From an uncultured bacterium (GTDB lineage: Bacteria; CSSED10-310; CAZUFC01), in assembly GCA_964619725.1 (NCBI GenBank), contig CAZUFC010000025.1, positions 10,385 through 74,384 of the forward strand: 64,000 bases of DNA, read 5' to 3'. The translations under genes were made by a program, and so were the position numbers. This document shows positions 6,227 through 33,774 of this stretch, piece after piece. The first letter of the stretch is position 1; every line of letters starts with the position of its first letter. Under the pieces are notes generated by a model, which did no database searches, was not told where the DNA came from, and saw only the letters and a program-made list of their open reading frames with translations.

Positions 6227-6227
6227 A

Positions 6228-7325: not shown

Positions 7326-7339
7326 GAGGTTGAATCAGT

Positions 7340-9273: not shown

Positions 9274-9306
9274 CAGCTAATCTGACCTTCTTTCTTTTTA
9301 ATTTTC

Positions 9307-10242: not shown

Positions 10243-10244
10243 TT

Positions 10245-11521: not shown

Positions 11522-13183
11522 TCAAGAGATGTCGATCATGCGCGACAGGGCGGCTTTCCCTCGATATTCGGGCAGAAGTATGGGGGCTTTTCGTTTCGTT
11601 TCGATTCCCGCATCTCTCAGCATGCTGACGTATTTAGAAACGTGTTTGAGAGTCAATTGACCGTTTTTAAGTCCATCTTTGACCATTTTAGCAGCGCTGA
11701 TGCCAGACCTTCTTCCGAAGACCATGGTATCGAGAGTGGAGTTGCCCATAAGTCTGTTTTTGCCGTGGACGCCGCCGGAAACTTCGCCGGCGACCCAAAG
11801 TCCTTCGAGACTCGTTTTACCCCAGGGATCGGTTTCCACGCCGCCGTTCTGGTAATGGAGGGTGGGGAAGACCAGGACGGGGTTTTTACTGATGTCGATG
11901 TCATGCCTGGCGAACATTCTTTTCATGCCGGGAAAAGCTTTTTCGATATAGCCTTCGCCGTTTTTCAATTCAATGAGAGGGGTATCGAGCCAAACGCCGC
12001 GAAGACCCGTAGGCGTAGTGATGCCTTTATCATTGCCGTAGCATTCCCTGATGATGGCCGCGGCTTCGACGTCTCTGGGTTCCATGGGGAAGACGAAAGC
12101 TTCTCCGTCCCTGTTGATGGGTTGAGCTCCGGAAGTTCTGAGTTTTTCAGTAAGGAGATAACCGATGATTTGCAAAGGATAGGCAGCCCCGGTAGGATGG
12201 TATTGAACAGTATCGAGGTCTTTGAGATTTGCGCCGGCTCTATAGGAGATGACCACTCCGTCGCAAGTGGCGCCGTAATGGTTCGTAGTGGGGAAACCCC
12301 TGATATGAAGCCTGCCGAAACCTCCCGTGGCTATAATGACGGCTTTGGCCCTGGCGACTTTGTATTCACTGGTCTCAATATTATAAAGCAAGGCGCCGCT
12401 GACTTTTCCGTCATAATCCGTAAAAAGTTCGATAGCCGGGAAATGTTCGATGCATCCGATGCCGCGGCTTCTGAACTCATCCCTGATGACTCGGAATTCT
12501 TCAAGTCCCGTAAAATCGCGGCAGGAATGCATACGTCTTATCGAAGTTCCTCCGCCGTATTTTTCGACGAAATCGCCGTTTTCTTCCCGGTCTATAAGTG
12601 CGCCGAGTTCCAGCAGCCAATGGATGATATAAGGAGCGTCTTCAACGAGGGCTCTTACGACGTCCGGTTTGTTGGCGTAGTGTCCTCCGCCGATAGTGTC
12701 GATGAAATGTCTGGTGACGGAATCGACATCGCGGTCTGCAGCCTGAGTGCCTCCCTCGGCCATAATGGAATTGGCATCGCCGTGTCTGAGTTTATTGACC
12801 AGGAGAATCCGGTCAGCGGGTACGCCTTCCGTATTGGCCCAAATGGCTGCGCTCGTACCGGCCAGACCGCCTCCTATTATCATTACGTCAACATCATAAT
12901 CTATTTTGCTTGCATCGATTTCCTCTTCTTCGACAAGAGGGTAAGCTTCCAGGAGGTCCGCTACCGGTTCAGGGGCCATGTCGCCCTTGTTGGGACCTAT
13001 TTTTATTTCACGCTTGCCGCCGGTCACATAATCTGGATGAAACTGCGACAGCACTTCATTCTGCTGTTCCGGCGTCATTGCCGGGGGCGTGTAATGCAAA
13101 CGCTCTTTTCTGGTCTTGTGGACCACCTGCATTAATTCATAAATATCCTGCGGATAACCTTCCATATATTTTGCTTCAGCCAT
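11522..13183 (-). CDS. Soluble fumarate reductase/succinate dehydrogenase flavoprotein (TfrA-like)
   Basis: GGGLAG, QYHPT, PRD, LHYQNGG and HGKNRLMGNS catalytic motifs. The usual covalent-FAD His position reads ANSIMAEGG. Confidence 0.85.
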   Translation of the reverse strand: MAEAKYMEGYPQDIYELMQVVHKTRKERLHYTPPAMTPEQQNEVLSQFHPDYVTGGKREIKIGPNKGDMAPEPVADLLEAYPLVEEEEIDASKIDYDVDVMIIGGGLAGTSAAIWANTEGVPADRILLVNKLRHGDANSIMAEGGTQAADRDVDSVTRHFIDTIGGGHYANKPDVVRALVEDAPYIIHWLLELGALIDREENGDFVEKYGGGTSIRRMHSCRDFTGLEEFRVIRDEFRSRGIGCIEHFPAIELFTDYDGKVSGALLYNIETSEYKVARAKAVIIATGGFGRLHIRGFPTTNHYGATCDGVVISYRAGANLKDLDTVQYHPTGAAYPLQIIGYLLTEKLRTSGAQPINRDGEAFVFPMEPRDVEAAAIIRECYGNDKGITTPTGLRGVWLDTPLIELKNGEGYIEKAFPGMKRMFARHDIDISKNPVLVFPTLHYQNGGVETDPWGKTSLEGLWVAGEVSGGVHGKNRLMGNSTLDTMVFGRRSGISAAKMVKDGLKNGQLTLKHVSKYVSMLRDAGIETKRKAPILLPEYRGKAALSRMIDIS

Positions 13184-13275
13184 TTATCATTTCCTCCGAA
13201 AAACCGAGACCGAATTTAATGAATAATTCCGGCGGAATATAGTCTTAATTCCACCCTTAAAAAATCTGAACTGCT

Positions 13276-14040
13276 TTATTCGGCTTCCGATTCGCGTTCA
13301 CGCGATTCATAAAGTCTGGTCAATTCCTCTTTATCCAAAGCAGTGAGTTTTTCCATCTCTTCATCGAATTTACCCTGAGCCAATTCCTCCAATCTTCTCT
13401 TCAGGTGTTCCGGTTCAGGACAGCCGTATCTGCCGTACATCCTCCGGCCCAACTGCGCCACGTGATAATGAACGATTTCAGCAGGACACCTGATGGCGCA
13501 TAAACCGCACTGAATGCAATCGAACGATATCTCCGCCACTTCCTCAAAATCTCCCCTCAATGCCGCCTGAATATAATCCATAACCTCCAGGTCCTGGGGA
13601 CAGGCTTTTGTACAAGTATTACACGAAACGCAGCGGGCTATTTCGGGAAAATACTTCAGGAAAACGTTCGGATGATACTCCTCTTTCGAAATATCATAAG
13701 CGGGTTTTACTGCAGGAGAGAAAGGAATCTGAACCAGGTGCATCCCGTCTTCCACTCTTGTCTGGCAGGCCAGGTCCGTTTCGAGTTTATATTCACCCTG
13801 TCTCCGATAAACGGTGGAACAGGCTCCGCAGAAGCCCTGACGGCAGCCTACGGCCCTGACGAGTTTATAGCCGGCGTATTCCATAGCGTTAAGAATGGTC
13901 AAATCGGCGGGAACCTTATATCCTTTTCCCATGATGTAGATGGTGGCCCATTCTTTGATGTCCTTGTCATCAATCCCGGTAGTCACCGACGATGTGGCGT
14001 CGGCTATTTTTTGCATAATGTCTATCTTTTCTTCAGCCAT
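13276..14040 (-). CDS. Fe-S partner subunit (2Fe-2S plus 2x4Fe-4S; SdhB/TfrB N-terminal-like)
   Basis: GCRQGFCGAC...LACQT, CVSCNTCTKACP, CIQCGLCAIRCP. Confidence 0.82.
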   Translation of the reverse strand: MAEEKIDIMQKIADATSSVTTGIDDKDIKEWATIYIMGKGYKVPADLTILNAMEYAGYKLVRAVGCRQGFCGACSTVYRRQGEYKLETDLACQTRVEDGMHLVQIPFSPAVKPAYDISKEEYHPNVFLKYFPEIARCVSCNTCTKACPQDLEVMDYIQAALRGDFEEVAEISFDCIQCGLCAIRCPAEIVHYHVAQLGRRMYGRYGCPEPEHLKRRLEELAQGKFDEEMEKLTALDKEELTRLYESRERESEAE

Positions 14041-14055
14041 TTTGTCGCTCTTCCT

Positions 14056-14949
14056 TCAGAGAATATTTTTTTGCTTTAACAAAGGCAGCGGATTGACGCG
14101 ATTTAATTCGAATCCGCAAACATTTTCATTCAAGCCGAAAGCGCAAGCCATGAGTTGCGTGAAATACAAAACAGGCATTTGCTCGAAATCGGCATATTTT
14201 TCCGTTACTTCCTTCTGCCGGTCGTCAAGATTGAACATACACAGAGGACAGCTCGTAATCATAGCTTCGGCGCCGGCATCGCGGGCGTGAGAAATGATGT
14301 CGTAGGTCAGATCGACAACCATTTCTTTGTTCGATACGGTCTGGTAGTTGCCGCAACATACGCTCCTGTAAGGATTCTCCACGACTTCAGCTCCCAGAGC
14401 TTCGAGCAGCATGTTGTAGATGAGAGGATTTTCAGGGTCGTCGATTCCACTTTCTTTGGGTCGCATCAGCATACAATCGTAATAAGGCGCGACTTTCAGC
14501 CCCTCAAGAGGTTTTACCGTTTTTTCCTTCACTTTGTCGAAGCCTATTTCCTTTAATAATTCCAAGAAGTGAACGACCTCGACATTCCCCTCATAGTCCT
14601 GTTCAAGATAAGCCAGACTATTGATTTTTTCCAAATCCTCCGCGTTTTCTTTCAGTCTTATGTTGGTCCTTTTCAACGTGTTGAAACACATGGAGCATAA
14701 AGTCACCAAGCGTCTTTCATTGTCTACGAGACCGTTTTGATTCATTTCCTGAACGCGAATGAATACGCGTGCCGGCGCTATATGATGCATCAGGTCGTCG
14801 GCCGCCAGAGAATATACGGTCCCGCAACAATTCCAGCGGGGAAGTTCCACTAATTCCAAGCCCAGTACTTCAGCAGACGCCAGGGCTGAGCTTTCAAAAC
14901 CCTTGGCGCTGGTTTTTAGAGAGCATCCTGGATAATACGGCAGTTTCAT
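14056..14949 (-). CDS. hdrB: Heterodisulfide reductase subunit B (CCG domains)
   Basis: YYPGCS, WNCCG, CSMC, VCCG, CPLC. Confidence 0.92.
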   Translation of the reverse strand: MKLPYYPGCSLKTSAKGFESSALASAEVLGLELVELPRWNCCGTVYSLAADDLMHHIAPARVFIRVQEMNQNGLVDNERRLVTLCSMCFNTLKRTNIRLKENAEDLEKINSLAYLEQDYEGNVEVVHFLELLKEIGFDKVKEKTVKPLEGLKVAPYYDCMLMRPKESGIDDPENPLIYNMLLEALGAEVVENPYRSVCCGNYQTVSNKEMVVDLTYDIISHARDAGAEAMITSCPLCMFNLDDRQKEVTEKYADFEQMPVLYFTQLMACAFGLNENVCGFELNRVNPLPLLKQKNIL

Positions 14950-14964
14950 TTTGTTCCCACTTTT

Positions 14965-15369
14965 CTATCCTGTCATTTTACGGAAGCTGCTGACCAGTGC
15001 GATTTGCGGCAGCCTCTTGATCTCATCCTCAGGTATACATCTGATTTCGATATGATCCTTGGCTTTCCTCAGCGAAATTTGACGTAATGCCTCTGCAACT
15101 TTCGAAGGATCAAGGCCGCGAGGGCATCTGACGGTGCAGGTAAAACAAGAAGCGCAAATCCACATGGCTTTTGATTCGCAGACATCCTCCTGACCCAGTT
15201 GAACTTTACGCATCATCTGGGATGGAGTGATATCCATTTCCGATACCATAGGGCAACTTCCCGAACAGGTCCCGCACTGTTCGCACAGCGTCACGACCTC
15301 GCCCGACAAAGTTTCCACTTTTTCCACGAATTTCGTGTTTTTATCAGTCAATATTACTTTTTTAACCAT
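14965..15369 (-). CDS. hdrC: Heterodisulfide reductase subunit C
   Basis: CEQCGTCSGSCP, WICASCFTCTVRCP. Confidence 0.92.
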   Translation of the reverse strand: MVKKVILTDKNTKFVEKVETLSGEVVTLCEQCGTCSGSCPMVSEMDITPSQMMRKVQLGQEDVCESKAMWICASCFTCTVRCPRGLDPSKVAEALRQISLRKAKDHIEIRCIPEDEIKRLPQIALVSSFRKMTG

Positions 15370-15440
15370 AAGTTACTCCCAGCAAATACAAATTTGAAGA
15401 GCCAGTCGAAGAACCGGTCCCTTAAGGAATATCCTGAAAG

Positions 15441-15866
15441 TTAAGTTTTTTCTTTAACTTTCAGATTCAGGGGACCGAGTTTTTTAATATCTTCCGTGAA
15501 TTCTTTAACGACTCGACCGAATTTGACGCCCTCGGAGGCGGAAACCCAGTCAAGTCGAAGTCTTTCTGAATCAATGCCCAACTGTTCCAGCGTTTTTTTG
15601 AGCAGGATGGCCCTTCGTAGAGTTTTGTAATTGCCGTTGACATAATGGCAGTCGCCGAGGTGGCAACCGGCGATAAGGACTCCATCGGCGCCTTCATTAA
15701 AGGCGTTAAGGATATGAGAAGGTTCGACCCTGCTGGAACACATGACTCTGATAGGGATCATGTTGACGGGGTATTGAACTCTGGAGGTGCCTGCCAGATC
15801 GGCGCCGAGGTAAGAACACCAGTTGCACAGAAAACCGATAATTTTAGGTTTAAATTCTTCTCCCAT
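15441..15866 (-). CDS. mvhD: MvhD [2Fe-2S] subunit
   Basis: FLCNWCSYLGADLAG, RVMCSSRV, GCHLGDCHY. Confidence 0.93.
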   Translation of the reverse strand: MGEEFKPKIIGFLCNWCSYLGADLAGTSRVQYPVNMIPIRVMCSSRVEPSHILNAFNEGADGVLIAGCHLGDCHYVNGNYKTLRRAILLKKTLEQLGIDSERLRLDWVSASEGVKFGRVVKEFTEDIKKLGPLNLKVKEKT

Positions 15867-15872
15867 TTGAAT

Positions 15873-17813
15873 TTACTCCAATGCTTTTTCAACCATCGCT
15901 AAAATCTGGTTAGAAGTGAATCCTCTTTGTTCCATGGCCCCTGAGGGGCAAGTAGCCGCGCAATTTCCGCAGCATTTGCATAAAACGGTATTGACGTTCG
16001 AAATTCTTTTACCGTTTTTAACTTCGAGTGAAATAGCCGAGTAAGGACAGACTGCAACGCAAGCGCCGCATCCTGAACAAACATCCTCATCGACCAGTGA
16101 TGTGTAGGGGTCCGCAATGAATTTTCCCGGATTCATCAGAGTTATCGCTCTGGCAGCGGCGGCGCTGCCCTGTGCGACGCTGTCTGGAATGTCCTTGGGA
16201 CCCTGGACGGTTCCCGCGACGAAGACGCCTTCGGATAGAGTATCGACCGGTCTGAATTTGGGATGCGCTTCTTTCAGAAAACCGTCATCCCCCTTGGCCA
16301 GCCTCAGAAGCTCCGCAACGATGCCGGTTCCCTCATGGGGTATCATGCCGACGGAAAGAATGACTGAATCGAATTCCGATTCGATAATATCTCTGGAGAG
16401 CGTATCTTCTGCTTTAAGAAGAATTCTTCCGTTATGCATGTTTTCCTGTAATTGAGCGACGCGTCCCCTGATAAATTTCACCCCTTCTCTCTGCGCTCTT
16501 TTATAGTATTCCTCGAATCCTTTTCCGTAGGCTCTGAGGTCCGTATAGAAAATATAGACGTCTTTGGATTTGTCGGTTCTTTTCAGCAACTGGGCCAATT
16601 TGCTTGCGTACATGCAGCAGATTCTGGAGCAGTATTCGTTTCCGCACTGTTCGTCTCTGGAGCCGACGCATTGAATAAAGGCGATTCTTTTACCGAGGTC
16701 GGTGATGGGTTCGCCTTCGGTAGCGTGTGCAATAATTCTTTCCAGTTCCAAGGAAGTATAGACGTTATCGAATTTGCCGAAGCCGTAGACGGCCTTTTGC
16801 GTGGCGTCGAAAACCTGATAACCTGTTGAGACAATGATCGTATCGACGGTGAAAGTTAATTCCTGTGGTTTATCGTCGTAATTGATGGCGTTGGGTTCGC
16901 AAACTTCTGAGCATTTAGTGCAAGCCAGGGGGAAAAGGCCCAGGCATGATTCGGAGTCAAGGATGTAGGTGTGAGGAACAGCGATGGAGTTGGGCAGGTA
17001 GATGGCTCTTCGGGAGGTCAGTCCTTCGTCTTGTTCGTTGGGGACGACGACGGGGCAGACATCTTCGCATTTTTCACAGCAGGTGCAGAGCGACGGATCG
17101 ACGAAGGTGGGTTTCTTTCTGACCGTAACCTGATAGTTACCCAGAAAACCGTCCACACTCAGCAATTCCGTGCTGGTCATCAGTTCGATGTTGGGATTTG
17201 CGGGAACGTCGGCCATTTTGGGCGAAAGAATACAGGCGGCGCAGTCTTCCGTGGGGAAGGTCCTGGAGAGTTTAACCATGTGACCGCCTATGGATGGTTC
17301 TTTCTCAACAAGATAAACCTTGAAGCCTGCATTGCCGAGGTCAAGAGCGGCCTGGATGCCGGCAATACCGCCGCCGACGACCAGGACTCTTTTGCCGACA
17401 GGCATTGACAATTTTTCCAGAGGTTCATCCAATCTTGCTTTTGTAATGGCCATATTGGTGAGCGATTTCGCTTTTTCGGTCGCTTCCTCTTTAAAGCTGA
17501 AGTGGGGCCAGGAGCATTGTTCGCGAATATTGGCCATTTCAAAGACATAAGGGTTCAATCCAGCTTTTTCCACTGTGGTCATGAACGTCGCACCCTGGAA
17601 CTGGGGTGAGCATGCCGCTATGACTACGCGATCCAGTTTGTGTTCCTTGATGTCATCAATGACCAATCTTTGACCGACCTCAGAACACATATGAGTGTGA
17701 TCCTTAACCATAACGACGTCACCCTGTTGTTCCGCAAATCGCACTACTTGATCAATATCAACGACTTCAGCGATGTTGCTTCCACAGTGACAAACATATA
17801 CACCGATTCTCAT
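15873..17813 (-). CDS. hdrA: Heterodisulfide reductase subunit A (canonical length)
   Basis: RIGVYVCHCG, AACSP, ANIREQCSW, GGGIAG, TFPTEDCAACIL, QCVGSRD...YCSRICC and a C-terminal ferredoxin domain. Confidence 0.95.
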   Translation of the reverse strand: MRIGVYVCHCGSNIAEVVDIDQVVRFAEQQGDVVMVKDHTHMCSEVGQRLVIDDIKEHKLDRVVIAACSPQFQGATFMTTVEKAGLNPYVFEMANIREQCSWPHFSFKEEATEKAKSLTNMAITKARLDEPLEKLSMPVGKRVLVVGGGIAGIQAALDLGNAGFKVYLVEKEPSIGGHMVKLSRTFPTEDCAACILSPKMADVPANPNIELMTSTELLSVDGFLGNYQVTVRKKPTFVDPSLCTCCEKCEDVCPVVVPNEQDEGLTSRRAIYLPNSIAVPHTYILDSESCLGLFPLACTKCSEVCEPNAINYDDKPQELTFTVDTIIVSTGYQVFDATQKAVYGFGKFDNVYTSLELERIIAHATEGEPITDLGKRIAFIQCVGSRDEQCGNEYCSRICCMYASKLAQLLKRTDKSKDVYIFYTDLRAYGKGFEEYYKRAQREGVKFIRGRVAQLQENMHNGRILLKAEDTLSRDIIESEFDSVILSVGMIPHEGTGIVAELLRLAKGDDGFLKEAHPKFRPVDTLSEGVFVAGTVQGPKDIPDSVAQGSAAAARAITLMNPGKFIADPYTSLVDEDVCSGCGACVAVCPYSAISLEVKNGKRISNVNTVLCKCCGNCAATCPSGAMEQRGFTSNQILAMVEKALE

Positions 17814-17983
17814 GTTATTGTATCCCTCTACTTTATGTTTTCCTAAACATTACCGTTGCGTTGAAGGCAGTCTGAGCGTCCCTGCCGCAAGGACCAATCG
17901 CCTGGAAACGAGCATTTTGCGTTCGATGAAGCGTTAAGTTTTCTGTGATCGGGCTCATACTGCCGAGATTAAAAATTCCGAAT

Positions 17984-18853
17984 TTATGGGATTAAAGAAG
18001 CCAGAGTTTTTCCGATGTCAGCGGGACTTCCGGCCACGGCAGCTCCGGCCTTTTTCAGCGCCTCTATTTTCTCAGGCGCGGTTCCTTTGCCGCCAGAGAT
18101 AATGGCGCCGGCATGCCCCATACGTTTTCCCGGAGGCGCTGTTCTGCCTGCGATAAACGCTGCCACAGGTTTTTTGACTTCCCCCTTGATGAATTCCGCC
18201 GCTTCCTCTTCCGCTGTTCCTCCTATTTCCCCGATAAGGACAATGGCGTCGGTATCCGGGTCTTCATTGAACAGTTTAAGGTAATCGATGAAATTCATTC
18301 CAAGTATGGGATCGCCGCCCATGCCGATGCATGTCGATTGTCCTATGTCCCTTTCAGAGAGCTGGTGTATGGCTTCGTAAGTGAGGGTTCCGCTGCGCGA
18401 TATGACGCCGACGGCGCCGGGCTTATGAATATATCCCGGCATAATTCCTATTTTGCACTTTCCGGGAGAAATGACGCCCGGGCAGTTCGGCCCTATCAGT
18501 CGAACGTCCGTGTTCTCAATGATTCTTTTTACTTTCACCATATCCAGTACGGGAATGCCTTCGGTTATGCATACGATCAGTTTAATTCCAGCGTCGGCCG
18601 CTTCCAGTATCGCATCTGCGGCGAATGCCGGAGGTACGAAAATCATGGTCGCGTCAGCGCCGGTGGTTTCCCTGGCTTCCGATACGGTATCAAAGACTGG
18701 AATTCCTTCCACTTCCTCGCCGCCTTTTCCCGGCGTAACTCCGCCGACTACTTTCGTGCCGTATTCAAGACAACGGAGAGTATGGAAGGCGCCGGCCTTT
18801 CCGGTAATACCCTGACAAATCATTTTGGTTTTTTCATCTGCTAGAATCGACAT
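17984..18853 (-). CDS. sucD: Succinyl-CoA synthetase alpha subunit
   Basis: [27 protein letters not shown]. Confidence 0.97.
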
Positions 18854-18868
18854 TTTGCTCGCCCTTAC

Positions 18869-20032
18869 TCAATTTTTGATATTGGAAATTGCTTTTACCG
18901 CCGCGTCGTTAAAGTCTGAGGCTGTAATGATTTTAATATTCGATCTTTCCAGGATCGCCTTTCCTTCCTTCATGTTTGTTCCTTCAAGTCTGACGATGAG
19001 AGGAACTTTCAGGTCGACTTCCTTGAGAGCCGTCAGAATACCTTCGGCGATGACGTCGCATTTCATGATTCCGCCGAAAATATTGACCAGGACCGCTTTC
19101 ACGTTAGGGTCCTGAGTAAGAATTTTAAAGGCTTCCGTAACTTGATCGGTACTTGCGCTCCCTCCTACGTCCAGGAAATTCGCCGGTTCCGCGCCGTGCA
19201 GTTTAATGATGTCCATGGTAGCCATCGCCAGCCCCGCTCCATTGACCAGGCAGCCGATATTACCGTCAAGAGAAATATAACTCAGTCCGTTTTCCCTGGC
19301 AACTACCTCCTTCGGGTTCTCTTCGGTAACGTCTCTCAATTCAACGATATCAGCATGTCTGAACAATGAATTGTCGTCGAAATTCAGCTTGGCATCCAGC
19401 GCTAGCATATCGCCCTGTTTCGTGACGACCAGCGGGTTGATTTCCGCCAGCGAGCAATCATTGGCCAGGAATGCCCGGTAAAGGTTTGTGATCATCTTAA
19501 GGGCCGATTTGAATGTCTTTTTTTCTCGCAGGCCGAGTTTAAAAGCCATTCGTCTCGCCTGGTAGGACATCAATCCCACGGCCGGATCAACGAATTCCTT
19601 GTATATTTTTTCCGGGGTCTCAGCAGCGACCTTCTCTATTTCCATACCGCCTTCCGAGCTGCCCATTACGGCGACGCGATTAGTGCTTCTGTCGATGACC
19701 ATTCCCAGATATAGTTCCCGGTCAATATCACAGGCTTGTTCTATTAAGACTTTGCGAACTTCTTTGCCCTCGGGGGCCTGATGCGTCTTAAGAAGCATTC
19801 CCAGAATGTTTCCGGCATGAGAACGAACCTCCTGCTCCGATGAAGCCAGTTTGATGCCGCCCGCCTTTCCACGGCCCCCGGCATGCACCTGCGCTTTAAC
19901 TACCCATTTGTCGCCTCCGATGCGGGAGGCCGCTTCCGCCGCTTCCTCGACTGAAGCCGCTACCGCTCCGGCAGGAACAGGAACATTGAATTTCCTCAGT
20001 ATATCTTTTGCTTGATATTCGTGTACTTTCAT
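18869..20032 (-). CDS. sucC: Succinyl-CoA synthetase beta subunit
   Basis: [37 protein letters not shown]. Confidence 0.97.
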
Positions 20033-20043
20033 CCTATTTCTCG

Positions 20044-20628
20044 CTAGTATTTAATTTCAAGGATTCTTCCTGCCGCTTCAGAAGATTCTTGCTCCACCTT
20101 CCGATGCAAACTTTGCCCATACGAATCCATGGTTACGACTACGGGAAATCTTTCCACTTCCAGCACCCACAATGCTTCAGGAGTGCCGAATTCTTCCAGT
20201 TTAAAGACTTTTTTAACTTTTTTTATGGATTCCGCCAGAACAACAGCCAGTCCGCCTATCGCATGGAAATATACCGCTCCGTATTCGCTGCACGCTTCCA
20301 GCGTCCGGTCTCCCATGCCTCCTTTGCCTATGATCCCGACTACTCCATATTCCTTTATCACGTCCGCTTCATACGGTTCTTCGCGAATGCTGGTCGTCGG
20401 ACCGGCTGCAACGACTTTCCAACCCTCGTCTGTCTTCTTCATTATAGGGCCGCAATGATAAATAACCGAACCCCGCAGGAAGTCTCTCAGTTCTTCCGGC
20501 TTTTCCTCCACCATGTATTTATGAGCGGCGTCGCGGGCGGTAACGATCTGTCCGGTCAGCGCCGCTTCATCGCCTACTTTGAGTTCTCTGATTCTTTTTT
20601 CCGTGGTCGGTAATTCAATTTCAATCAT
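20044..20628 (-). CDS. Class I (Fe-S) fumarate hydratase, beta subunit
   Basis: TARDAAH, YHCGP, GPTTSIR, IGKGGM. Confidence 0.9.
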
Positions 20629-21484
20629 ACGTCACGCCACCTCCCGAATCGATAATCATTGTGCGGCGCCGGCAAGCCCAGCACATATAGGAAACGGATA
20701 CGAAAAAACAGGCCGGGTGACGCACCATGGCGCCCAGTTTGACGCCGAGAACGGTGGTTTTTCCGCCGAAACCCATGGGGCCTATGCCCAGCGAATTCAA
20801 TTCATCCGTCAATTTGGATTCCATTTTCGCCAGGGCCGCATTCTCGTTTTCATCGTCAAGCAATCTGAAAAACTGCTCCTTCGACAACCGATAAGAGGTC
20901 ATCCTGTCGCCGCCTATGCCTGCTCCTACCGTGCCCGGCGCGCATCCTTTGCCCTGAGCGGACACGATTGCATCGATAATGCATTTTCTGACTCCCTCAA
21001 GGTCCCGGCCGGCATTCAGCCTGCTGTCCGGCAATTTGTATTGAACGCCTACATTCTCGCTTCCCCCGCCTTTCAACATAAGACGGATTCGCAAGTCCTC
21101 CCTCTCCCACTGCTTGAAAGATATGTAAGGCGCTCCGGTTCCTGTGCCGTCGCCCACATTCTTCCCGCTTATCACGTCCACCGTGTTCGGCCTTAAATAA
21201 CACTTCGCCGTTGCCTCCCTGACGGCTTCCGTGATCAGCTCTTTCAATCCATTCTGCTTTCGCGATACGGGATGATCAACATAAAATAACGTAGTCCCCG
21301 TATCCTGGCACATCGGGACGGATTGTTCTCGAGCAAGCTCTATATTTTCCAGTATCCTGTTTAGCGTACTGCGAGCCAGACTCCCTTCCTGCTCCTCCGA
21401 TGCCGCCGTCCTTATCCGATTCTCAACATCAACGGGCAAATCCGTCGATGTCCTCCTGATTAGTTCGACAATTTCTTCCTTCAT
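20621..21484 (-). CDS. Class I (Fe-S) fumarate hydratase, alpha subunit
   Basis: PMCQDTG, KGGGSEN, GCAP, GIGPMGFGG, CWACRR. Confidence 0.9.
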   Translation of the reverse strand: MKEEIVELIRRTSTDLPVDVENRIRTAASEEQEGSLARSTLNRILENIELAREQSVPMCQDTGTTLFYVDHPVSRKQNGLKELITEAVREATAKCYLRPNTVDVISGKNVGDGTGTGAPYISFKQWEREDLRIRLMLKGGGSENVGVQYKLPDSRLNAGRDLEGVRKCIIDAIVSAQGKGCAPGTVGAGIGGDRMTSYRLSKEQFFRLLDDENENAALAKMESKLTDELNSLGIGPMGFGGKTTVLGVKLGAMVRHPACFFVSVSYMCWACRRRTMIIDSGGGVTYD

Positions 21485-22180: not shown

Positions 22181-22388
22181 GCGTATGGTCCCGATTTCCG
22201 AAGAGGGACTGCCGGTTAAGAAATTTTGGCGCAAATCCGTTTTCTGTCTGGTGCGTTATTTAGGATTTAAGGAGGAATGAGAGACAAGGCGAAAGGTAGG
22301 AATAGAAGAGTGAAGGGAAAGTTTACGCCAAATTTTCATAAAATTTTTTATTTTTTTCAGGAGAAGAACTAATTAAAGGAGGTTGCGC

Positions 22389-23381
22389 ATGGCGAAACCA
22401 AAGGTAGGCTTTTACTGGTGCGCATCGTGCGGAGGGTGTGAGGAAGCGGTAGTAGACCTGGCGGAGGACATCCTGACGGTCGTGGATGCGGTAGACATAG
22501 TCTTTTGGCCTGTGGCGATGGATTTCAAGAAGAAGGACGTGGAGGCGATGGCCGACGGCGAGCTGGCAGTAAGTTTCATCAATGGAGGAGTTCGGAACGA
22601 CGAGCACGAGGAGATGGTTAAGTTACTGAGGCGGAAGAGCGGATTAGTGGTAGCATTCGGGGCCTGTGCGCATTTAGGAGGCATTCCGGGGTTAGCCAAT
22701 TTTTCGAATCGCGAGCTGGTGTTTGAGCGAGCGTATAAGAAGACGGCATCGACGCATAATCCGGATTACGTAACGCCACAGACGAAGAGCAGCGTGAACG
22801 GCAAGGAGTTGGAGCTTCCATTGTTTTGGGACACGTTGCATCCCTTGGATCATATAATCGATGTAGATTACTATTTGCCGGGATGTGCGCCGCCGCCGGA
22901 TTTAATAATGGATGCAGTGACGGCCATATTAAAGGGAGAGCTTCCGGAGAAGGGAGCGGTATTGTCGCCGAACAAGTCTTTATGCGATACGTGTCCGCGT
23001 TCGGAGAGCAAGCCTGATAAGCTGATGATGAAGGACATCAAGCGTCCTTATGAGGTCATTTTAGACCCAGAGAAATGTTTTCTTGAGCAAGGTGTGATAT
23101 GTTTAGGAATATCGACGAGGACGGGATGCGGGGAGCGCTGCATCAACGCGAACATGCCGTGTCGAGGATGTTTCGGGCCGTTGGACGGAATCCAGGACCA
23201 TGGGGCCAAGACATTGTCGGCCATAGCGTCTTTAGTGGGTATAGAAGGTGAGGAGAGCATGAGCGAGGAAGAGGTGCAGACGCAGATAGAAAAGATCAAG
23301 GACCCTGCAGGACTGTTCTATATGTATGGGTTGGCATCTTCTTTACTCGGAAGGAAACGCATTAAAGGAGGAAAAGCATAA
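22389..23381 (+). CDS. mvhG: F420-non-reducing [NiFe] hydrogenase small subunit
   Basis: ATG 22389 after AAGGAGG. CASCGGC, GACA, PGCAP, CFLEQGVICLG, PCRGC; no Tat signal. Confidence 0.92.
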   Translation: MAKPKVGFYWCASCGGCEEAVVDLAEDILTVVDAVDIVFWPVAMDFKKKDVEAMADGELAVSFINGGVRNDEHEEMVKLLRRKSGLVVAFGACAHLGGIPGLANFSNRELVFERAYKKTASTHNPDYVTPQTKSSVNGKELELPLFWDTLHPLDHIIDVDYYLPGCAPPPDLIMDAVTAILKGELPEKGAVLSPNKSLCDTCPRSESKPDKLMMKDIKRPYEVILDPEKCFLEQGVICLGISTRTGCGERCINANMPCRGCFGPLDGIQDHGAKTLSAIASLVGIEGEESMSEEEVQTQIEKIKDPAGLFYMYGLASSLLGRKRIKGGKA

Positions 23382-24838
23382 TGAAAAGGGTAACCATAGA
23401 CCCGATCACCAGGCTGGAGGGCCACGGCAAGATAGAGATATTTCTTGATGATACGGGCAATGTGGACAAGGCATTTCTGCAGATACCCGAATTAAGGGGA
23501 TTTGAGGAATTTTCAGTGGGCCGTATGGCGGAAGAGATGCCCCGGATTACGCCCAAGATATGCGGGGTATGTCCGACGACGCATCACATGGCTTCAGGAA
23601 AAACGCTGGACGACCTGTTTAACGTGGACCCGCCTGCAGCGGCCAAGAAGATTCGCGAGTTGATAAACTGTGCGTTCATGGCTGAGGATCACATACTGCA
23701 TTTTTATTTTCTGGGCGGACCTGATTTCGTGGTAGGTCCGGATGCTCCGGCTGCGGAACGCAATATTCTCGGCGTGATCAGCAAGGCGGGAATAGAGGCC
23801 GGCAAGAAGGTCATCGACATAAGGAAGAAGCTTCGCAACATAATAACGAAGCAGGGCGGTCGTGTGATTCATCCCGTATGCAATCTGCCCGGCGGCGTAT
23901 CCAAGGGAGTGACGCGTGAGGACCGGGAGGAGTACATAGCCATAGGGAAGGAAGCGATAGAGTTTGCGCAGTTTTCGTTGAAGCTTTTCGACGACATAGT
24001 GTTGAAGAATCAGAGTTACGTTGATACGATCGTGGGCGATGTTTACAAGCACAACACCTATTACATGGGTCTGGTCGACGGGAACAACAAGGTGAATTTT
24101 TACGACGGCGACATCCGCGTGGTTGACCCTGAAGGAACGGAATACGTCAAGTTCAAGCCGAGCGAGTATCTGGAACACATTGAAGAGCATGTGGAGCCGT
24201 GGAGTTATATCAAGTTTCCATATTTAAAGAATATTGGCTGGAAAGGATTCGTGGACGGCAAGGAGAGCGGAGTTTACCGCGTAGCGCCGCTGGCGCGATT
24301 GAATGCTGCAGACGGTATGGCGACGCCTCTGGCGCAGGCTGAATACGACAAGATGTACGAAGTTCTGGGCGGCAAACCGGCTCATAATACTCTGGCTTAT
24401 CATTGGGCCCGGCTGGTGGAAGTCCTCTATGCAGCCGAGAGATTGCTGGAATTGGCGGAAGATGAAGAAATACTTGATCCGACGGTGAGGAAGATACCGG
24501 AATCAGAGCCGAATGAAGGAATAGGAGTGGTGGAAGCGCCGCGGGGCACGCTTTTTCACCATTACAAGTCGGACAAGGACGGCATACTGACGGATGTAAA
24601 TTTAATTGTAGCGACAGTCAACAATTCTGCAGCATTGTGCATGTCTGTAGCCAAAGCCGCTTCAGGCGTCATCAAAAACGGCGAAGTGACGGACGGCGCT
24701 CTCAACATGGTCGAAATGGCCTTCCGCGCTTATGATCCGTGTATGGCGTGCGCGACGCATTCGCTGCCTGGCCAGACGCCGTTGGAAGTGAAGATACGCG
24801 ATCCCAGGGGAAGAACGCTCAAAACTTTGCGACGTTAG
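23381..24838 (+). CDS. mvhA: Group 3c [NiFe] hydrogenase large subunit
   Basis: TRLEGHG, PKICGVC, EAPRG, RAYDPCMACATH plus a C-terminal extension. Confidence 0.93.
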   Translation: MKRVTIDPITRLEGHGKIEIFLDDTGNVDKAFLQIPELRGFEEFSVGRMAEEMPRITPKICGVCPTTHHMASGKTLDDLFNVDPPAAAKKIRELINCAFMAEDHILHFYFLGGPDFVVGPDAPAAERNILGVISKAGIEAGKKVIDIRKKLRNIITKQGGRVIHPVCNLPGGVSKGVTREDREEYIAIGKEAIEFAQFSLKLFDDIVLKNQSYVDTIVGDVYKHNTYYMGLVDGNNKVNFYDGDIRVVDPEGTEYVKFKPSEYLEHIEEHVEPWSYIKFPYLKNIGWKGFVDGKESGVYRVAPLARLNAADGMATPLAQAEYDKMYEVLGGKPAHNTLAYHWARLVEVLYAAERLLELAEDEEILDPTVRKIPESEPNEGIGVVEAPRGTLFHHYKSDKDGILTDVNLIVATVNNSAALCMSVAKAASGVIKNGEVTDGALNMVEMAFRAYDPCMACATHSLPGQTPLEVKIRDPRGRTLKTLRR

Positions 24839-24872: not shown

Positions 24873-25328
24873 ATGAGAACGTTAGTATTGGGTTTGGGCA
24901 ATCCGATTTTATCGGATGATTCTGTGGGAATAAAAGTGGCGCAGATGCTCAAAAAGGCGGACCCGCCTTTAAAAGCGGAGATAAAAGAGGCGTGTGCGGG
25001 GGGGCTTACTATCCTGGACGAACTGGACGGTTTCGACCGGGTGATACTGGTGGACTCGATAAAGACGGGTAAAGCTTCCCCGGGAACGATTTACAGGCTG
25101 AAAGAGGAGGATTTCAACAGCACGACGCAGTTGTCCGATTCCCATGGCATTGATTTTTTCACAGCGATTGAGATGGGGCGGATATATGGTTGTAAAATGC
25201 CGGAGTTAATCGACATTTTCGCTGTTGAGGTGGAAGATAACGTTACCTTTAGCGAAGACTGCACTGACAAGGTGATGGAGAGTATCCCCATATTAGTGCG
25301 TCAGATAACGGAGGAGGTAAGCCGTTAA
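24873..25328 (+). CDS. Hydrogenase maturation protease
   Basis: LGLGNPILSDDSVG, ILVDS, SH motif. Confidence 0.92.
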   Translation: MRTLVLGLGNPILSDDSVGIKVAQMLKKADPPLKAEIKEACAGGLTILDELDGFDRVILVDSIKTGKASPGTIYRLKEEDFNSTTQLSDSHGIDFFTAIEMGRIYGCKMPELIDIFAVEVEDNVTFSEDCTDKVMESIPILVRQITEEVSR

Positions 25329-26773: not shown

Positions 26774-26797
26774 GGGATTGAGGATAGAGGAGGAACA

Positions 26798-27346: not shown

Positions 27347-27351
27347 TTAAT

Positions 27352-29713: not shown

Positions 29714-30901
29714 ATGAATAAAACATCAGAAAAAATTTCAATCAACGAAGGTCGACTGAGTGGAAGTCAAGCATGCGTCGAGGGCGCCTTTGCGGCAGGA
29801 TGCCGTTTTTACAGCGGTTATCCGATAGAGCCTGCATTGGATGTAATGAATTATTTTTTAAAGCGGGCGCCTCATTTTGATGCCACGTTCATTCAAATGG
29901 AAGATGAGATATCGGCTCTGGCGGCATTGCTGGGAGCGGTATGGACGGGCAAGCGAGGATTAACGGCGACGTCCGGACCGGGTTTTTCGCTCATGATGGA
30001 GCATCTGGGACTGGGCATCATGCTTGAGACTCCATGCGTAATTGTGGATGTGCAGAGGGCCGGTTTATCGACGGGGATACCGGAGATGGCTGGTCAGGGA
30101 GACGTGATGCAGGCCCGGTGGGGGTCACACGGAGATTACGAATTAGTAACGTTATGTCCGAGTTCTCCACAGGAAATGTTTAATTTCACGTTTGAGGCGT
30201 TCAATCTGGCGGAGAGGTACAGGATACCAGTGGTAGTATTGACGGATGAGTATGTAGCGCACATGGAGGGTGAGGTAACGGCGCCGGACAGGGTAGAGAT
30301 TGAGCCGCGCCGGTATTTTACGGGTCCGAAGGATCAGTATTTTCCGTTCAAGCGGGACAGGGACCTGATTCCCCGCATGGTGGACATAGGACAGGGTTAC
30401 AGGTTTCATGTGACAGGACTGACGCACGATGACCGGGGTTACCCCATTATGAACGAGGAATGCCAGGAGTATAACGTTCATCCTCTGGTCTGGAAGATAC
30501 GGAGGAACGAGGACAAGTTAACGCGGGTGAAGGAGACCAGGACGGAGGATGCTGAGGTTATCATCGTTTCATACGGAGCGACGGTGAAATTTGCTCTTCG
30601 TGCGGTAGAGGAGGCGCGAAAGGCGGGAATAAAGGCGGGTCATATGCAAATAGAGGTGATCTGGCCGTTTCCCGACAAGCATATAGCTAAAGCGGCCAAG
30701 AACGTGAAGGCTTTCGTAGTGCCTGAGATGAATCACGGTCAGGCAGTTTACGAGGTTCAGAGGAGCAGCTACGGCGGAGCCAACGTTGTATTCGTGCATC
30801 ATGGAGAGGATGGAATCGAGAACATAGATGCGATGCTTTCCGCTATGGAAAACGCCATAAAAGAACCGGGTATCAAAGAGGGGATACTCGAATACCGTTA
30901 G
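29714..30901 (+). CDS. korA: 2-oxoacid:ferredoxin oxidoreductase alpha subunit (copy 1, YPIEP variant)
   Basis: GYPIEP, QMEDE, TSGPGFSLM, QRAG, VPEMN. Confidence 0.85.
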   Translation: MNKTSEKISINEGRLSGSQACVEGAFAAGCRFYSGYPIEPALDVMNYFLKRAPHFDATFIQMEDEISALAALLGAVWTGKRGLTATSGPGFSLMMEHLGLGIMLETPCVIVDVQRAGLSTGIPEMAGQGDVMQARWGSHGDYELVTLCPSSPQEMFNFTFEAFNLAERYRIPVVVLTDEYVAHMEGEVTAPDRVEIEPRRYFTGPKDQYFPFKRDRDLIPRMVDIGQGYRFHVTGLTHDDRGYPIMNEECQEYNVHPLVWKIRRNEDKLTRVKETRTEDAEVIIVSYGATVKFALRAVEEARKAGIKAGHMQIEVIWPFPDKHIAKAAKNVKAFVVPEMNHGQAVYEVQRSSYGGANVVFVHHGEDGIENIDAMLSAMENAIKEPGIKEGILEYR

Positions 30902-30911
30902 GGAGCTATTA

Positions 30912-31775
30912 ATGGAAGTAACTGAAGAAAAAAAGATTCAAGCGAGTGAAAACGAACATCCGTTGGAGGACCTGCTCCGAATGGACAGGATTCCTCATAT
31001 CTGGTGTCCCAGTTGCGGCATAGGCTTGGGGGTGACGGCTTTTGCCGATGCTTTGAACCGTGCCGAGGTTGATCTGGACAATCTGGCGATTGTTTCAGGT
31101 ATCGGGTGCACCGGAAGGGTGGCGGGATATACGAAGCTGGATTCTTTTCATACGACGCATGGAAGGCCAATCGCTTTTGCGACGGGCATCAAGGTGGGCA
31201 ATCCCAAGTTGAAGGTGGTGGTTTTTTCCGGCGACGGCGATTTGATATCGATCGGCGGGAACCATTTCATTCATGCTGCGAGAAGAAACATAGACATGCT
31301 GGTGATATGCGTGAACAATTTCATATACGCCATGACGGGCGGTCAGGTCGCTCCGACGACGCCGCTGGGCGCATATGCGACGACTTCGCCGTACGGATGC
31401 TGCGAAGCGCCGTTTAACGTTCCCTATATAGCGGATTCGGCGGGCGCTGTTTATGTAGCCAGGTGGACCGCATTGCATATCAGGAGGTTGACCAATTCCA
31501 TCGTCGAGGCGTTGAACAAGAATGGGTTATCGGTCATTGAGGTGATATCGCCTTGCGCAATGTATTATTCCAGGATCAATAAGCTGGGCGACGGTTTGGA
31601 CATGATGAGGTTCTATCATGAGAATTCGGAAGTGAGGAACGGCGAGGATACGAAGAACGTTGATTTATCATTTCAGTCAAAAATCGTCGTCGGGAAATTT
31701 GTAGATAGAGAGAGACCGAGTTACACGGATTTGTATAAGAAGTGGGCAGATGAAGTCAAAGGAAAGAAAGAATGA
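30912..31775 (+). CDS. korB: 2-oxoacid:ferredoxin oxidoreductase beta subunit (intact TPP motif)
   Basis: WCPSCG, SGIGC, HGR, GDGD...NN, SPC. Confidence 0.9.
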   Translation: MEVTEEKKIQASENEHPLEDLLRMDRIPHIWCPSCGIGLGVTAFADALNRAEVDLDNLAIVSGIGCTGRVAGYTKLDSFHTTHGRPIAFATGIKVGNPKLKVVVFSGDGDLISIGGNHFIHAARRNIDMLVICVNNFIYAMTGGQVAPTTPLGAYATTSPYGCCEAPFNVPYIADSAGAVYVARWTALHIRRLTNSIVEALNKNGLSVIEVISPCAMYYSRINKLGDGLDMMRFYHENSEVRNGEDTKNVDLSFQSKIVVGKFVDRERPSYTDLYKKWADEVKGKKE

Positions 31776-33013: not shown

Positions 33014-33774
33014 ATCCGTTAATCAAAGCAATAGAAAAAGGAATCGAAAAATCGGGATTTGCGCCCTGCAATGTCTGCATTGCTTCGGATATCCCGTTTA
33101 AACCGGAAACAGTGAAGAATCTGGGGGTCGATTTTTTTCATGTTATTCGAGGGCGTACCGTCGCCTTCGGGACGGGAATTAAATTGGCTAATCCTATGTT
33201 GAAAGTTGTTCCTGTGGTCGGAGACCTGATGACGCTCGGAGGAAACCACGTGGTTCATGCGGGCAGAAGAAACATGGAACTTCATGTGATATGCGTAAAC
33301 ACCTTCATATATGATAGAATAGCCGGAAAAAAGGCGCCGTCTGCCGACACCCGCTTCGCAAACTATTCTACATTCGAGAGTCCCTTTAATGTACCTCATG
33401 TCGCCAATTCCTGCGGAGCGGTATTTACAGCGCGATGGACGGCATTGCATACGAATGAGATAGCCGATTCGATAGCTGCGTCCTTTGAGAAGAGCGGTTT
33501 TACAGTTGTGGAAGTTTTATGCCCGGGGCCAAATTTTTATTCGGACATTGATCATATCAACGAGGAACTGCTTTCTTTTTACCATGAGAATTCGGATGTG
33601 AGAAACGGCGAGGAACCGAGGAGCGCAGAGATCGACCCGGAGGAAAAAATTGCAGTGGGCAATTTCACTGATATTGAGAGACCGACGTTTTTAGACGTCT
33701 ACAACATTCAACTACCAAAAAGATTGGGTGACAAGTTTACCCCGTATTGTGGATGTGGTGAGCAAAATGGCTGA
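33010..33774 (+). CDS. Degenerate 2-oxoacid:ferredoxin oxidoreductase beta-like subunit
   Basis: Similar to the upstream beta subunit (AFGTGIK.ANP.LKVV, GGNH.VHA.RRN, ARWTALH) but lacks WCPxCG and GDGD. Confidence 0.8.
   Translation: MNPLIKAIEKGIEKSGFAPCNVCIASDIPFKPETVKNLGVDFFHVIRGRTVAFGTGIKLANPMLKVVPVVGDLMTLGGNHVVHAGRRNMELHVICVNTFIYDRIAGKKAPSADTRFANYSTFESPFNVPHVANSCGAVFTARWTALHTNEIADSIAASFEKSGFTVVEVLCPGPNFYSDIDHINEELLSFYHENSDVRNGEEPRSAEIDPEEKIAVGNFTDIERPTFLDVYNIQLPKRLGDKFTPYCGCGEQNG

Follow-up and report, generated by a model that had tools for sequence, protein, structure and literature searches.

What high-potential acceptor is reduced by the Mvh/Flx-Hdr systems of bacteria and archaea that have neither coenzyme M (CoM) nor coenzyme B (CoB)? 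Many non-methanogens encode MvhADG-HdrABC and are not known to make either coenzyme; fumarate as the acceptor would, if true, answer the question. The case considered here is a stretch of 64,000 nucleotides (the window; positions 10385-74384 of contig C25) from an uncultured bacterium, part of a metagenome-assembled genome that totals 9.17 Mb in 344 contigs, with completeness put at 90.9% and contamination at 6.5%. Ten co-directional genes on its minus strand, running from 21484 down to 11522, are in order fumA-fumB-sucC-sucD-hdrA-mvhD-hdrC-hdrB-FeS-flavoprotein, with intergenic spacing that ranges from an 8-base overlap to 170 bases. An earlier note on this DNA had recognised the run, and the interval that it gave, 11522-21484, has the stop of the flavoprotein gene and the start of fumA as its precise ends. 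The divergent mvhG/mvhA pair, the downstream mdh-like, mdh and LarA-like genes, the flavoprotein's N-terminal extension and missing PF02910 domain, and the slight likeness of the Fe-S protein to SdhB/FrdB in its 2Fe-2S domain are additions to what it described.

The six genes from hdrA to the flavoprotein gene would, as read here, encode one soluble complex in which fumarate replaces the CoM-S-S-CoB of methanogen Hdr. Electrons would enter via MvhD, the donor in this instance being H2 acting through the divergently encoded MvhAG [NiFe] hydrogenase, and would be split at the HdrA flavin. The high-potential branch would lead from HdrC to HdrB, with its two CCG clusters, then to the Fe-S subunit and the non-covalent FAD at which fumarate is converted to succinate, and the low-potential branch would reduce ferredoxin. 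Flanking genes would provide a branch of the reductive citric acid cycle, from oxaloacetate to malate (mdh), fumarate (fumAB), succinate, succinyl-CoA (sucCD) and 2-oxoglutarate (kor), the kor products being the proposed consumer of the reduced ferredoxin. For each fumarate reduced, reduced ferredoxin would thus be supplied for the Kor carboxylation of the resulting succinyl-CoA, a yield in keeping with the kor genes that recur within the cluster in related genomes. Judged from sequence and modelled structure, a full bifurcating HdrA-based complex with fumarate as the high-potential acceptor is on balance probable, and the narrower claim, that of a soluble fumarate reductase linked to Hdr, is more likely than the full bifurcating model. 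The support consists of gene content, motifs, conserved synteny, co-occurrence and a complex model that passes against its controls; the single complex in the cell, bifurcation at HdrA, ferredoxin as the second acceptor, the direction of the reaction and H2 as the donor are what we infer from it. The interpretation of the earlier note, a flavin-bifurcating H2:fumarate/ferredoxin oxidoreductase, stands as the best reading, neither phylogeny nor synteny nor the complex model having refuted it.

Residues and relatives of the flavoprotein

The flavoprotein has the PF00890 domain of the FrdA/SdhA/NadB superfamily (Table 1). That it keeps the dicarboxylate catalytic motifs, as had been claimed, is borne out by alignment, in which H329, T345, E346, R349, R370, H443 and R477 correspond to FrdA H233, T245, E246, R249, R288, H356 and R391 (numbered as in the translated gene), i.e. 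to all seven catalytic residues of FrdA; among 37 family sequences T345 is at least 90% conserved and the other six are invariant. The histidine for covalent FAD attachment is, again as first described, absent: the segment reads GDANSIMAEGG, with N138 in the column of H45 of both E. coli FrdA and E. coli SdhA, and the window's own SdhA (51843-53546) reads PLRSHSIAA in the corresponding region. No match to the C-terminal domain PF02910 was found in the flavoprotein at E <= 0.001, and 76 residues follow the last catalytic Arg, versus 154-211 in E. coli NadB, SdhA and FrdA. At the other end is a 95-residue N-terminal extension that is conserved family-wide and confidently folded. The model of the whole chain (predicted local distance difference test score, pLDDT, 89.5; predicted template modelling score, pTM, 0.90) has E. 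coli FrdA as its best fold match (1kf6_A, E 1.7e-35), with other SdhA/FrdA chains also at the top and NadB lower. All curated profiles score far under their cut-offs, the best being TfrA (NF004900, 292.6 versus 718 bits), with SdhA/FrdA (TIGR01812, 258.5 versus 567.3) and NadB (TIGR00551, 252.2 versus 452.75) behind it.

Phylogeny, which had been suggested as a check, places the flavoprotein in a clade of its own, outside the NadB, SdhA/FrdA and TfrA-like clades. The tree has 112 rows, comprising the query, 6 close relatives, 99 cluster representatives (from the best 150 at 50% clustering, after removal of the 51 shorter than 380 residues), E. coli SdhA, FrdA and NadB, and the three other PF00890 proteins of the genome. 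The family of the flavoprotein is a separate 18-row clade (support by the Shimodaira-Hasegawa-like approximate likelihood ratio test, SH-aLRT, 98), and a NadB clade of 36 rows (SH-aLRT 100) holds E. coli NadB together with the genome's NadB-like protein, G000_C173. A TfrA-like clade of 25 rows is sister to SdhA/FrdA; its seven labelled members reach 510-646 bits against the TfrA profile (the upper value is also given as 625), and for five of them no other profile scores higher, and as the tree has no sequence above the TfrA cut-off, the separation seen is from TfrA-like rows and not from true methanogen TfrA. The features of a respiratory SdhA/FrdA (a score above the cut-off, the covalent-FAD histidine and PF02910) are all lacking in the flavoprotein, as are those of TfrA (a score above the cut-off and placement with the TfrA-like rows). 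Identity as NadB was considered and rejected, the score being under the cut-off, the protein lying outside the NadB clade and G210 occupying the column of E. coli NadB Glu121 (Glu in both E. coli NadB and the genome's NadB-like protein), a residue which we take to have a functional role.

The family is large and closely knit: the top 120 matches of the flavoprotein are 71-77% identical to it along the whole length, and the labels among them include Deltaproteobacteria, Aminicenantes, Fermentibacteria, WOR-3, Phycisphaerae and Thermoplasmatota. A more distant relative, P0285 (in the cluster of P0128; about 41% identical, 542 residues), is recorded under 'Prochlorococcus sp. MIT 1201', where it lies on a contig of 2.59 Mb; such a host is surprising for an enzyme of anaerobe type.

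A substrate other than fumarate (L-aspartate, another enoate, or a 2-hydroxy- or amino-dicarboxylate) would accommodate the missing of all curated cut-offs as well as the N-terminal extension and the lack of PF02910, and some other chemistry of dicarboxylates is hinted at by three neighbours, the LarA-like, the second mdh-like and the GlcD-like genes. Retention of the seven FrdA residues argues otherwise, as do the Gly at the NadB Glu121 column, the separate NadB-like gene in the genome and the recurrence of fumAB, sucCD and kor as neighbours in several phyla, and we hold such a substrate to be very improbable.

From HdrA to the Fe-S protein

In the proposed path, electrons would pass from HdrA to the flavoprotein by way of HdrC, HdrB and the Fe-S protein. 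The hdrA product scores 831 bits on the HdrA2 profile, covering positions 1-641 of 777 and below the cut-off of 1100, and its 30 cysteines include three complete CxxCxxCxxxC motifs, two of them C-terminal, and further groups at 290-305 and 382-400. MvhD, with five cysteines, matches the C-terminal part of the same profile (positions 646-774), and in two related loci, L001 and L003, hdrA and mvhD are fused. HdrC has two CxxCxxCxxxCP motifs (TIGR03290, 72.6 bits, cut-off 160) and a conserved, family-specific tail. HdrB has the two CCG domains with ten cysteines, C9, C41, C42, C85, C88, C159, C198, C199, C234 and C237, all invariant in 10 of 10 aligned orthologues; its score on TIGR03288 is 168.3 bits, below the cut-off of 345, and HdrA, HdrB and HdrC alike fall under the equivalog cut-offs for CoB-CoM heterodisulfide reductase. 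The Fe-S protein combines a plant-type 2Fe-2S motif (C66, C71, C74, C92) with two 4Fe-4S motifs, invariant in 17 of 17 orthologues. It is not a full-length SdhB/FrdB (TIGR00384, 28.3 bits versus a cut-off of 88). The TfrB profile NF004898 is matched piecewise, at 19-82 by the Fe-S protein, at 127-222 by HdrC and at 346-478 by HdrB, and the three together therefore resemble a split TfrB. In one relative, P0122 (727 residues), the Fe-S protein and the flavoprotein are naturally fused. The lack of a membrane anchor, reported at the outset, was confirmed by a hydrophobicity scan of 22 proteins, in which the highest 19-residue Kyte-Doolittle mean was 1.64.

A three-chain model of HdrB, HdrC and the Fe-S protein as partner, made with a custom alignment for each chain, bears on whether these parts meet. 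Its interaction score (ipSAE, interaction prediction score from aligned errors) is 0.82 (0.81, 0.82 and 0.83 in separate runs), versus 0.00 for the best of three controls. Among 80 solved complexes 58 attain the same mark, as do 2 among 110 mismatched pairs, a calibration that is only rough here because of the use of our own alignments and of three chains. Contacts agree between runs to at least 95%, and the partner has a pLDDT of at least 74. In the predicted interface HdrB residues 8-9 and 38-41, with the CCG cysteines C9 and C41, lie against Fe-S residues 135-145, which hold the first 4Fe-4S motif, and the HdrC tail (109-134) lies against Fe-S residues 123-136. The structure prediction, another of the checks suggested beforehand, was passed, and the model supports binding of the Fe-S protein to HdrB/HdrC.

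The CCG cysteines of Hdr and TfrB form a thiol/disulfide site, and retention of all ten in HdrB is also what one would expect if coupling were by a thiol, as in methanogens. MvhAGD-HdrABC would then reduce a disulfide (of a small thiol, or of a DsrC- or thioredoxin-like protein) and the Fe-S/flavoprotein pair would re-oxidise the thiol via a CCG protein, the two reactions being joined by a diffusible carrier. In the Aminicenantes-labelled locus L015 the genes immediately upstream of the pair (593-1943) are for thioredoxin and a protein like thioredoxin reductase, and a thioredoxin-glutaredoxin fusion is encoded near the cluster in L001 (2360-2962), possible hints of a thiol link in some lineages. 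A DsrC-like carrier is named as an option in the accessible part of PMC11636981. For the window, thiol coupling is unlikely: the cluster encodes a single HdrB/HdrC pair, neither the Fe-S protein nor the flavoprotein contains a CCG domain, no thiol-carrier gene was seen among the annotated cluster genes, and the model sets the Fe-S cluster motif on the first HdrB CCG cluster, as a direct wire needs.

Energetics is pertinent to two further alternatives. H2 has a standard potential of -414 mV, and ferredoxin is assumed to lie near -450 mV. For fumarate/succinate a value of +33 mV is given in the part of PMC5861303 that was available. The mean potential of the two acceptors comes, by arithmetic from these standard potentials, to about -208 mV, and consequently the forward reaction would be favourable down to about 1e-7 bar H2, with confurcation in the reverse direction implausible. 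The large drop from H2 to fumarate would also, on the same arithmetic, let the reaction run without coupling, and HdrA, HdrC and HdrB might then be a mere electron wire in an H2 (or NADH):fumarate oxidoreductase that reduces no ferredoxin. This is improbable, since HdrA is full length and has both its inserted and its C-terminal ferredoxin-like cluster motifs, and ferredoxin-consuming kor genes stand inside the cluster in 8 of 25 loci. To our knowledge, moreover, the HdrA complexes so far characterised bifurcate.

The oxidative direction, in which succinate and reduced ferredoxin would be oxidised with release of H2 in propionate or glutamate breakdown, has some appeal in that many of the genomes with the family bear the labels of uncultured lineages that ferment, and the window includes genes, at 54318-59941 (+), for a carboxyl transferase, biotin carboxylase, a biotin carrier domain, methylmalonyl-CoA mutase and a glyoxalase-fold, epimerase-like protein. 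The need for about 1e-7 bar H2, far under usual anoxic levels on the above potentials, and the presence of two canonical quinone-type SdhA/FrdA genes that would serve succinate oxidation make it of very slight probability. The methylmalonyl-CoA genes represent a succinyl-CoA/propionyl-CoA route encoded on this contig and would also allow conversion of succinate to propionate. For the forward direction, the genome has an ATP-citrate-lyase-like pair (L039, G000:C133, 5547-9596, minus strand), and dsrA and CdhC were not found in a search of this genome (completeness 90.9%), so that a reductive tricarboxylic acid (TCA) cycle is possible. The members of that pair are a 420-residue protein with ATP-grasp and ACL citrate-binding domains and a CoA-binding/CoA-ligase/citrate-synthase-like protein that, at 920 residues, is unusually long.

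Conservation, candidate donors and neighbouring genes

The synteny survey that had been recommended covered 25 related loci taken from species-representative genomes and extra loci, and it found the module conserved across phyla. Wherever upstream sequence is available (21 loci), the flavoprotein gene is immediately preceded by the Fe-S gene, and of the 12 loci whose sequence extends 2.9 kb or more upstream beyond the Fe-S gene, 11 have hdrB (the exception being L014). By their record titles, the hdrB-bearing loci include Cloacimonadota, WOR-3, Phycisphaerae, Aminicenantes and Bathyarchaeia, i.e. several bacterial phyla and one archaeon. Across the 25, hdrA occurs in 10, kor in 8, sucCD in 2, fumAB-like genes in 2 and the mdh-like/mdh/LarA-like set in 1. 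The window's order of the six genes is also that of L002 and, with hdrA and mvhD fused, of L001 and L003, and korABCD is found between hdrA and hdrBC in L009-L013. The six-gene order occurs again in L048, L050 and L051, with two kor pairs directly after it in L048 and L051; these are among six extra loci that were chosen for flavoprotein-HdrB closeness and show order, not adjacency frequency (one of the six, L049, is on the same contig as L004). Two loci of a WOR-3-like phylum, L050 (G099:C5) and L053 (G049:C13), have two paralogous full sets side by side, each with its own hdrA, mvhD, hdrC and hdrB, and with flavoproteins about 70-75% and about 53% identical to that of the window.

The genes around this core that might donate electrons vary, being mvhA and a protease gene in L004, Flx-like genes in L008 and a gene for a GltD/NfnB-like flavoprotein following Nuo-like genes in L003. 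H2 is for this reason one of several likely donors, and the donor modules would seem to be interchangeable around a constant core. In the window the best profile for each hydrogenase subunit is of Vhu type though below the cut-off (VhuA for MvhA, 418.6 versus 800 bits; VhuG for MvhG, 212.7 versus 450), and two MvhD genes are nearby.

Co-occurrence was counted in 151 genomes of one phylum, that of G018, with the flavoprotein called at E <= 1e-100 and this type of HdrB at E <= 1e-60. Each was found in 78 genomes, both in 68, the flavoprotein only in 10, the HdrB only in 10 and neither in 63. A close HdrB (at least 420 bits) is present in 35 genomes, of which 33 have the flavoprotein, and the two genes are within 10 kb of each other in 17 genomes. 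In the window's own phylum the flavoprotein was found at E <= 1e-100 in 1 of 14 genomes, namely this one. Given also that proteins of other phyla share 76-77% identity with it, the gene would seem to have been acquired horizontally.

Several of the results weigh against a single bifurcating complex acting on fumarate. With scores far below every curated cut-off, the substrate of the flavoprotein is one that we infer, and its catalytic residues are common to L-aspartate oxidase. The Fe-S protein departs from a canonical SdhB/FrdB (the hhalign probability is 19% with the window's SdhB and 76% with E. coli FrdB, over 46-61 columns that cover the 2Fe-2S domain only); its single-chain model is weak (pLDDT 67.7), and Foldseek with that weak model gave no match at E <= 0.001. 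Adjacent Mvh genes were found in the window and, among the 25 loci, in L004 alone. The Fe-S/flavoprotein pair is without nearby Hdr in L014 (with 6.9 kb of upstream sequence), L015, L017 and L020, and of five genomes with such a pair three have a close hdrC-hdrB elsewhere, beside korA or hdrA, and the other two no HdrB of this type at E <= 1e-20. The 10 of 78 flavoprotein-bearing genomes without this HdrB type at E <= 1e-60 are of the same kind, and the co-occurrence counts overstate the association because related genomes are not independent. Neighbourhood and co-occurrence would also fit two separate enzymes of one pathway that share an operon, the pair being a ferredoxin- or NAD(P)H-dependent soluble fumarate reductase, with Hdr/Mvh making reduced ferredoxin at the expense of another acceptor. 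The pairs and genomes lacking Hdr or HdrB would then find a ready explanation; the recurrence of the order hdrA-mvhD-hdrC-hdrB-FeS-flavoprotein across phyla, the company that close HdrB genes keep with the flavoprotein, the complex model with its controls at 0.00 and the conserved HdrC tail in the predicted interface would not, and independence of the two is, like the uncoupled electron wire, improbable. Lastly, with its two canonical SdhA/FrdA genes the genome is not reliant on the module for the reduction of fumarate.

One of these canonical genes is in the window, in a set at 49561-53924 (-) that encodes SdhC-SdhA-SdhB and then a Rieske protein and cytochrome b (SdhA scores 754 bits on TIGR01812, above the cut-off), so that the genome also has a quinone-linked enzyme; the other SdhA/FrdA is on contig C29.

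Given these considerations, a single Hdr-linked bifurcating complex that reduces fumarate is still preferred. A wider proposition, possible but more doubtful than probable, is that the six-gene module is a widespread, horizontally mobile bifurcating fumarate reductase with swappable H2, NADH or NAD(P)H donors, which would yield one reduced ferredoxin per fumarate and so prime 2-oxoglutarate synthase in a self-sufficient reductive TCA branch. The lineages concerned, going by label and just as tentatively, would be Cloacimonadota, WOR-3, Aminicenantes, Phycisphaerae, Bathyarchaeia and gammaproteobacterial symbionts.

Table 1. Coordinates of the module, its flanking genes and candidate partners in the window (cut-offs are those of the named profile)
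Feature	Coordinates	Strand	Length and profile evidence
fumA, class I Fe-S fumarate hydratase alpha	20621..21484	-	287 residues; PF05681 259 bits; TIGR00722 250 bits, above cut-off 100.65
fumB, fumarate hydratase beta	20044..20628	-	194 residues; PF05683 173.8 bits; TIGR00723 189.7 bits, above cut-off 145
sucC, ADP-forming succinate-CoA ligase beta	18869..20032	-	NF001913 569.8 bits, above cut-off 370
sucD, succinate-CoA ligase alpha	17984..18853	-	TIGR01019 468.4 bits, above cut-off 353.2
hdrA, FAD and poly-[4Fe-4S] subunit, proposed bifurcation site	15873..17813	-	646 residues; NF040770 HdrA2
mvhD, [2Fe-2S] adaptor between donor module and HdrA	15441..15866	-	141 residues; PF02662 180.9 bits
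hdrC-like, two [4Fe-4S] motifs and family-specific C-terminal tail	14965..15369	-	134 residues; TIGR03290
hdrB-like, two CCG domains	14056..14949	-	297 residues; PF02754 65.5 bits, 2 stretches; TIGR03288
Fe-S subunit, one [2Fe-2S] and two [4Fe-4S] motifs	13276..14040	-	254 residues
Flavoprotein, proposed catalytic fumarate reductase subunit, non-covalent FAD	11522..13183	-	553 residues; PF00890 203.6 bits, cut-off 20.4, residues 99-482
mvhG-like [NiFe] hydrogenase small subunit, divergent from fumA	22383..23381	+	best NF045875 VhuG
mvhA-like [NiFe] hydrogenase large subunit	23381..24838	+	best NF041785 VhuA
Hydrogenase maturation protease	24873..25328	+	TIGR00072 93.8 bits, cut-off 47.45
mdh-like	10245-11192	-	NF004863 365.6 bits, cut-off 283
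mdh	9307-10242	-	NF004863 442.8 bits, cut-off 283
2-oxoacid:ferredoxin oxidoreductase (kor), two alpha/beta pairs and gamma	29714..34309	+	PF01855, PF17147, PF02775, PF01558

The 898-base spacer between fumA and mvhG holds no convincing open reading frame (ORF). Between the flavoprotein gene and the mdh-like gene is a 329-base gap with a terminator-like hairpin at 11478-11454, and the mdh-like/mdh pair is possibly a separate transcript. Promoter and terminator scans of the region were overall at or below chance, with 13 terminator-like sites found versus 18.2 expected and hence no enrichment, and in a scan of the window no Rfam family reached its gathering score. A search of sequencing runs gave four DNA data sets, from one microbial-mat study, and no RNA data set. 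The mdh-like gene scores 344.5 bits on TIGR01763, slightly under the cut-off of 351.85. It and mdh are grouped with a LarA-family gene (7888-11192 for the three, minus strand, downstream of the flavoprotein gene) whose best profile is that of the nickel-dependent malate racemase LarAH6 (390 bits, below the cut-off of 500), and the trio recurs in identical order in the Cloacimonadota locus L002.

Right after the hydrogenase protease gene, at 25328-27744 (+), are genes for a GlcD-like FAD-linked oxidase (TIGR00387, 370 bits, below the cut-off of 568), a 182-residue Fe-S protein in which the CxxCxxCxxxC motif occurs four times, and the second MvhD. This resembles a second donor module, for a D-2-hydroxyacid dehydrogenase, that could dock on HdrA via MvhD; GlcD-like and related Fe-S genes are also downstream of the flavoprotein gene in L002. 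A second Hdr-like cluster, at 1794-7768 (+), encodes a 974-residue HdrA-like protein with extra ferredoxin domains, MvhD, an Fe-S protein, a FrhB-like protein and another MvhD. Of a quite different nature is a 3438-codon ORF at 37513-47829 (-), in which eleven stretches of right-handed beta-helix and NosD-like repeats were recognised, together with a weak match to cohesin at the C-terminus.

Relation to known systems

The idea of a bifurcating fumarate reductase is not itself new, having been proposed in NADH-driven form for tubeworm symbionts in 2019; what would be new here is an H2-driven, modular-donor and widespread form. In the accessible passages of that proposal, tfrAB and korABCD of tubeworm symbionts and of Thioflavicoccus are interspersed with flxABCD-hdrABC, and a complex feeding both enzymes is suggested (Rubin-Blum 2019, PMC6315080). 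The symbiont cluster is, going by passages of a later study, co-expressed except for tfrAB (Mitchell 2024, PMC11636981). A 2026 survey restates the idea, in the sections available, in the form that NADH would reduce fumarate and ferredoxin simultaneously, and in those sections the A/AB genes of the other surveyed autotrophs are not co-located with such a complex (PMC13147460), in contrast to the co-location found here in many uncultured phyla. As far as these partial sources go, the Hdr bifurcation proposed for Ca. Endoriftia and Thioflavicoccus mobilis, with fumarate and with ferredoxin for the 2-oxoglutarate step, is the same as that proposed here, and the published position of korABCD between hdrA and hdrBC is the layout of L009-L013. 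P0356, a protein labelled 'endosymbiont of Ridgeia piscesae', shares 41% identity with the flavoprotein of the window (512 residues, with the N-terminal extension and the C-terminal tail included), from which the window and symbiont families are judged to be the same, and P0356 is presumably the published tfrA product. The donors differ: in the tubeworm version, as described in the available text, NADH acts via FlxABCD, whereas in the window an Mvh-type [NiFe] hydrogenase is adjacent and no Flx-like gene is present among the annotated cluster genes.

Elsewhere the two enzymes have been dealt with apart. In the portion available, a WOR-3 survey treats MvhADG-HdrABC and fumarate reductase separately, and genome papers, that survey being an example, assign CoM-S-S-CoB reduction to MvhADG-HdrABC of non-methanogens (PMC12542636). 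An archaeal preprint, similarly seen in part, reports a thiol:fumarate reductase in synteny with an Hdr-like complex. A literature search in which few subscription journals were covered found no description of a Mvh-linked bacterial version or of a wide distribution. If the present reading is true, fumarate is a new acceptor class for flavin-based bifurcation, the supply of reduced ferredoxin for 2-oxoglutarate synthase at low H2 is explained, and the reading of carbon and hydrogen metabolism in several abundant uncultured phyla is altered. The six-gene core, together with the predicted HdrB-FeS interface, is in any event a defined object for expression and assay.

The MvhAGD-HdrABC complex of hydrogenotrophic methanogens, reportedly the subject of work by Kaster in 2011 and Wagner in 2017, has the same parts, i.e. 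a [NiFe] hydrogenase, MvhD, a full-length HdrA, an HdrC bearing two 4Fe-4S motifs and an HdrB with ten CCG cysteines. Its counterparts here differ in scoring under the equivalog cut-offs, in the shortness of HdrC (134 residues) with its family-specific tail, and in the proposed acceptor, which would be fumarate, reached via two extra subunits, and not CoM-S-S-CoB. TfrAB of Methanothermobacter, said to have been described by Heim in 1998, is a soluble fumarate reductase too, and TfrA is the best curated profile for the flavoprotein, far under cut-off though the score is. In comparison, the window's flavoprotein is without the C-terminal domain, the functions of TfrB are split over three genes, and, HdrA and MvhD being added relative to TfrAB, a thiol donor need not be involved. 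A five-subunit soluble NADH-dependent fumarate reductase of Hydrogenobacter thermophilus, reportedly characterised by Miura in 2008 and likened here by description alone, is also one that works in the reductive TCA cycle with extra electron-input subunits. Hdr cores are joined to other terminal reductases in MetFV-HdrABC-MvhD of Moorella, the benzoyl-CoA reductase BamB-I of Geobacter and HdrA2B2C2 of Methanosarcina. The HdrA::MvhD fusion of L001 and L003 is similar to HdrA2, whose profile likewise scores highest for the window's HdrA, and what sets the present system apart from all three is its terminal module, a flavoprotein of the FrdA superfamily with an Fe-S subunit of its own.

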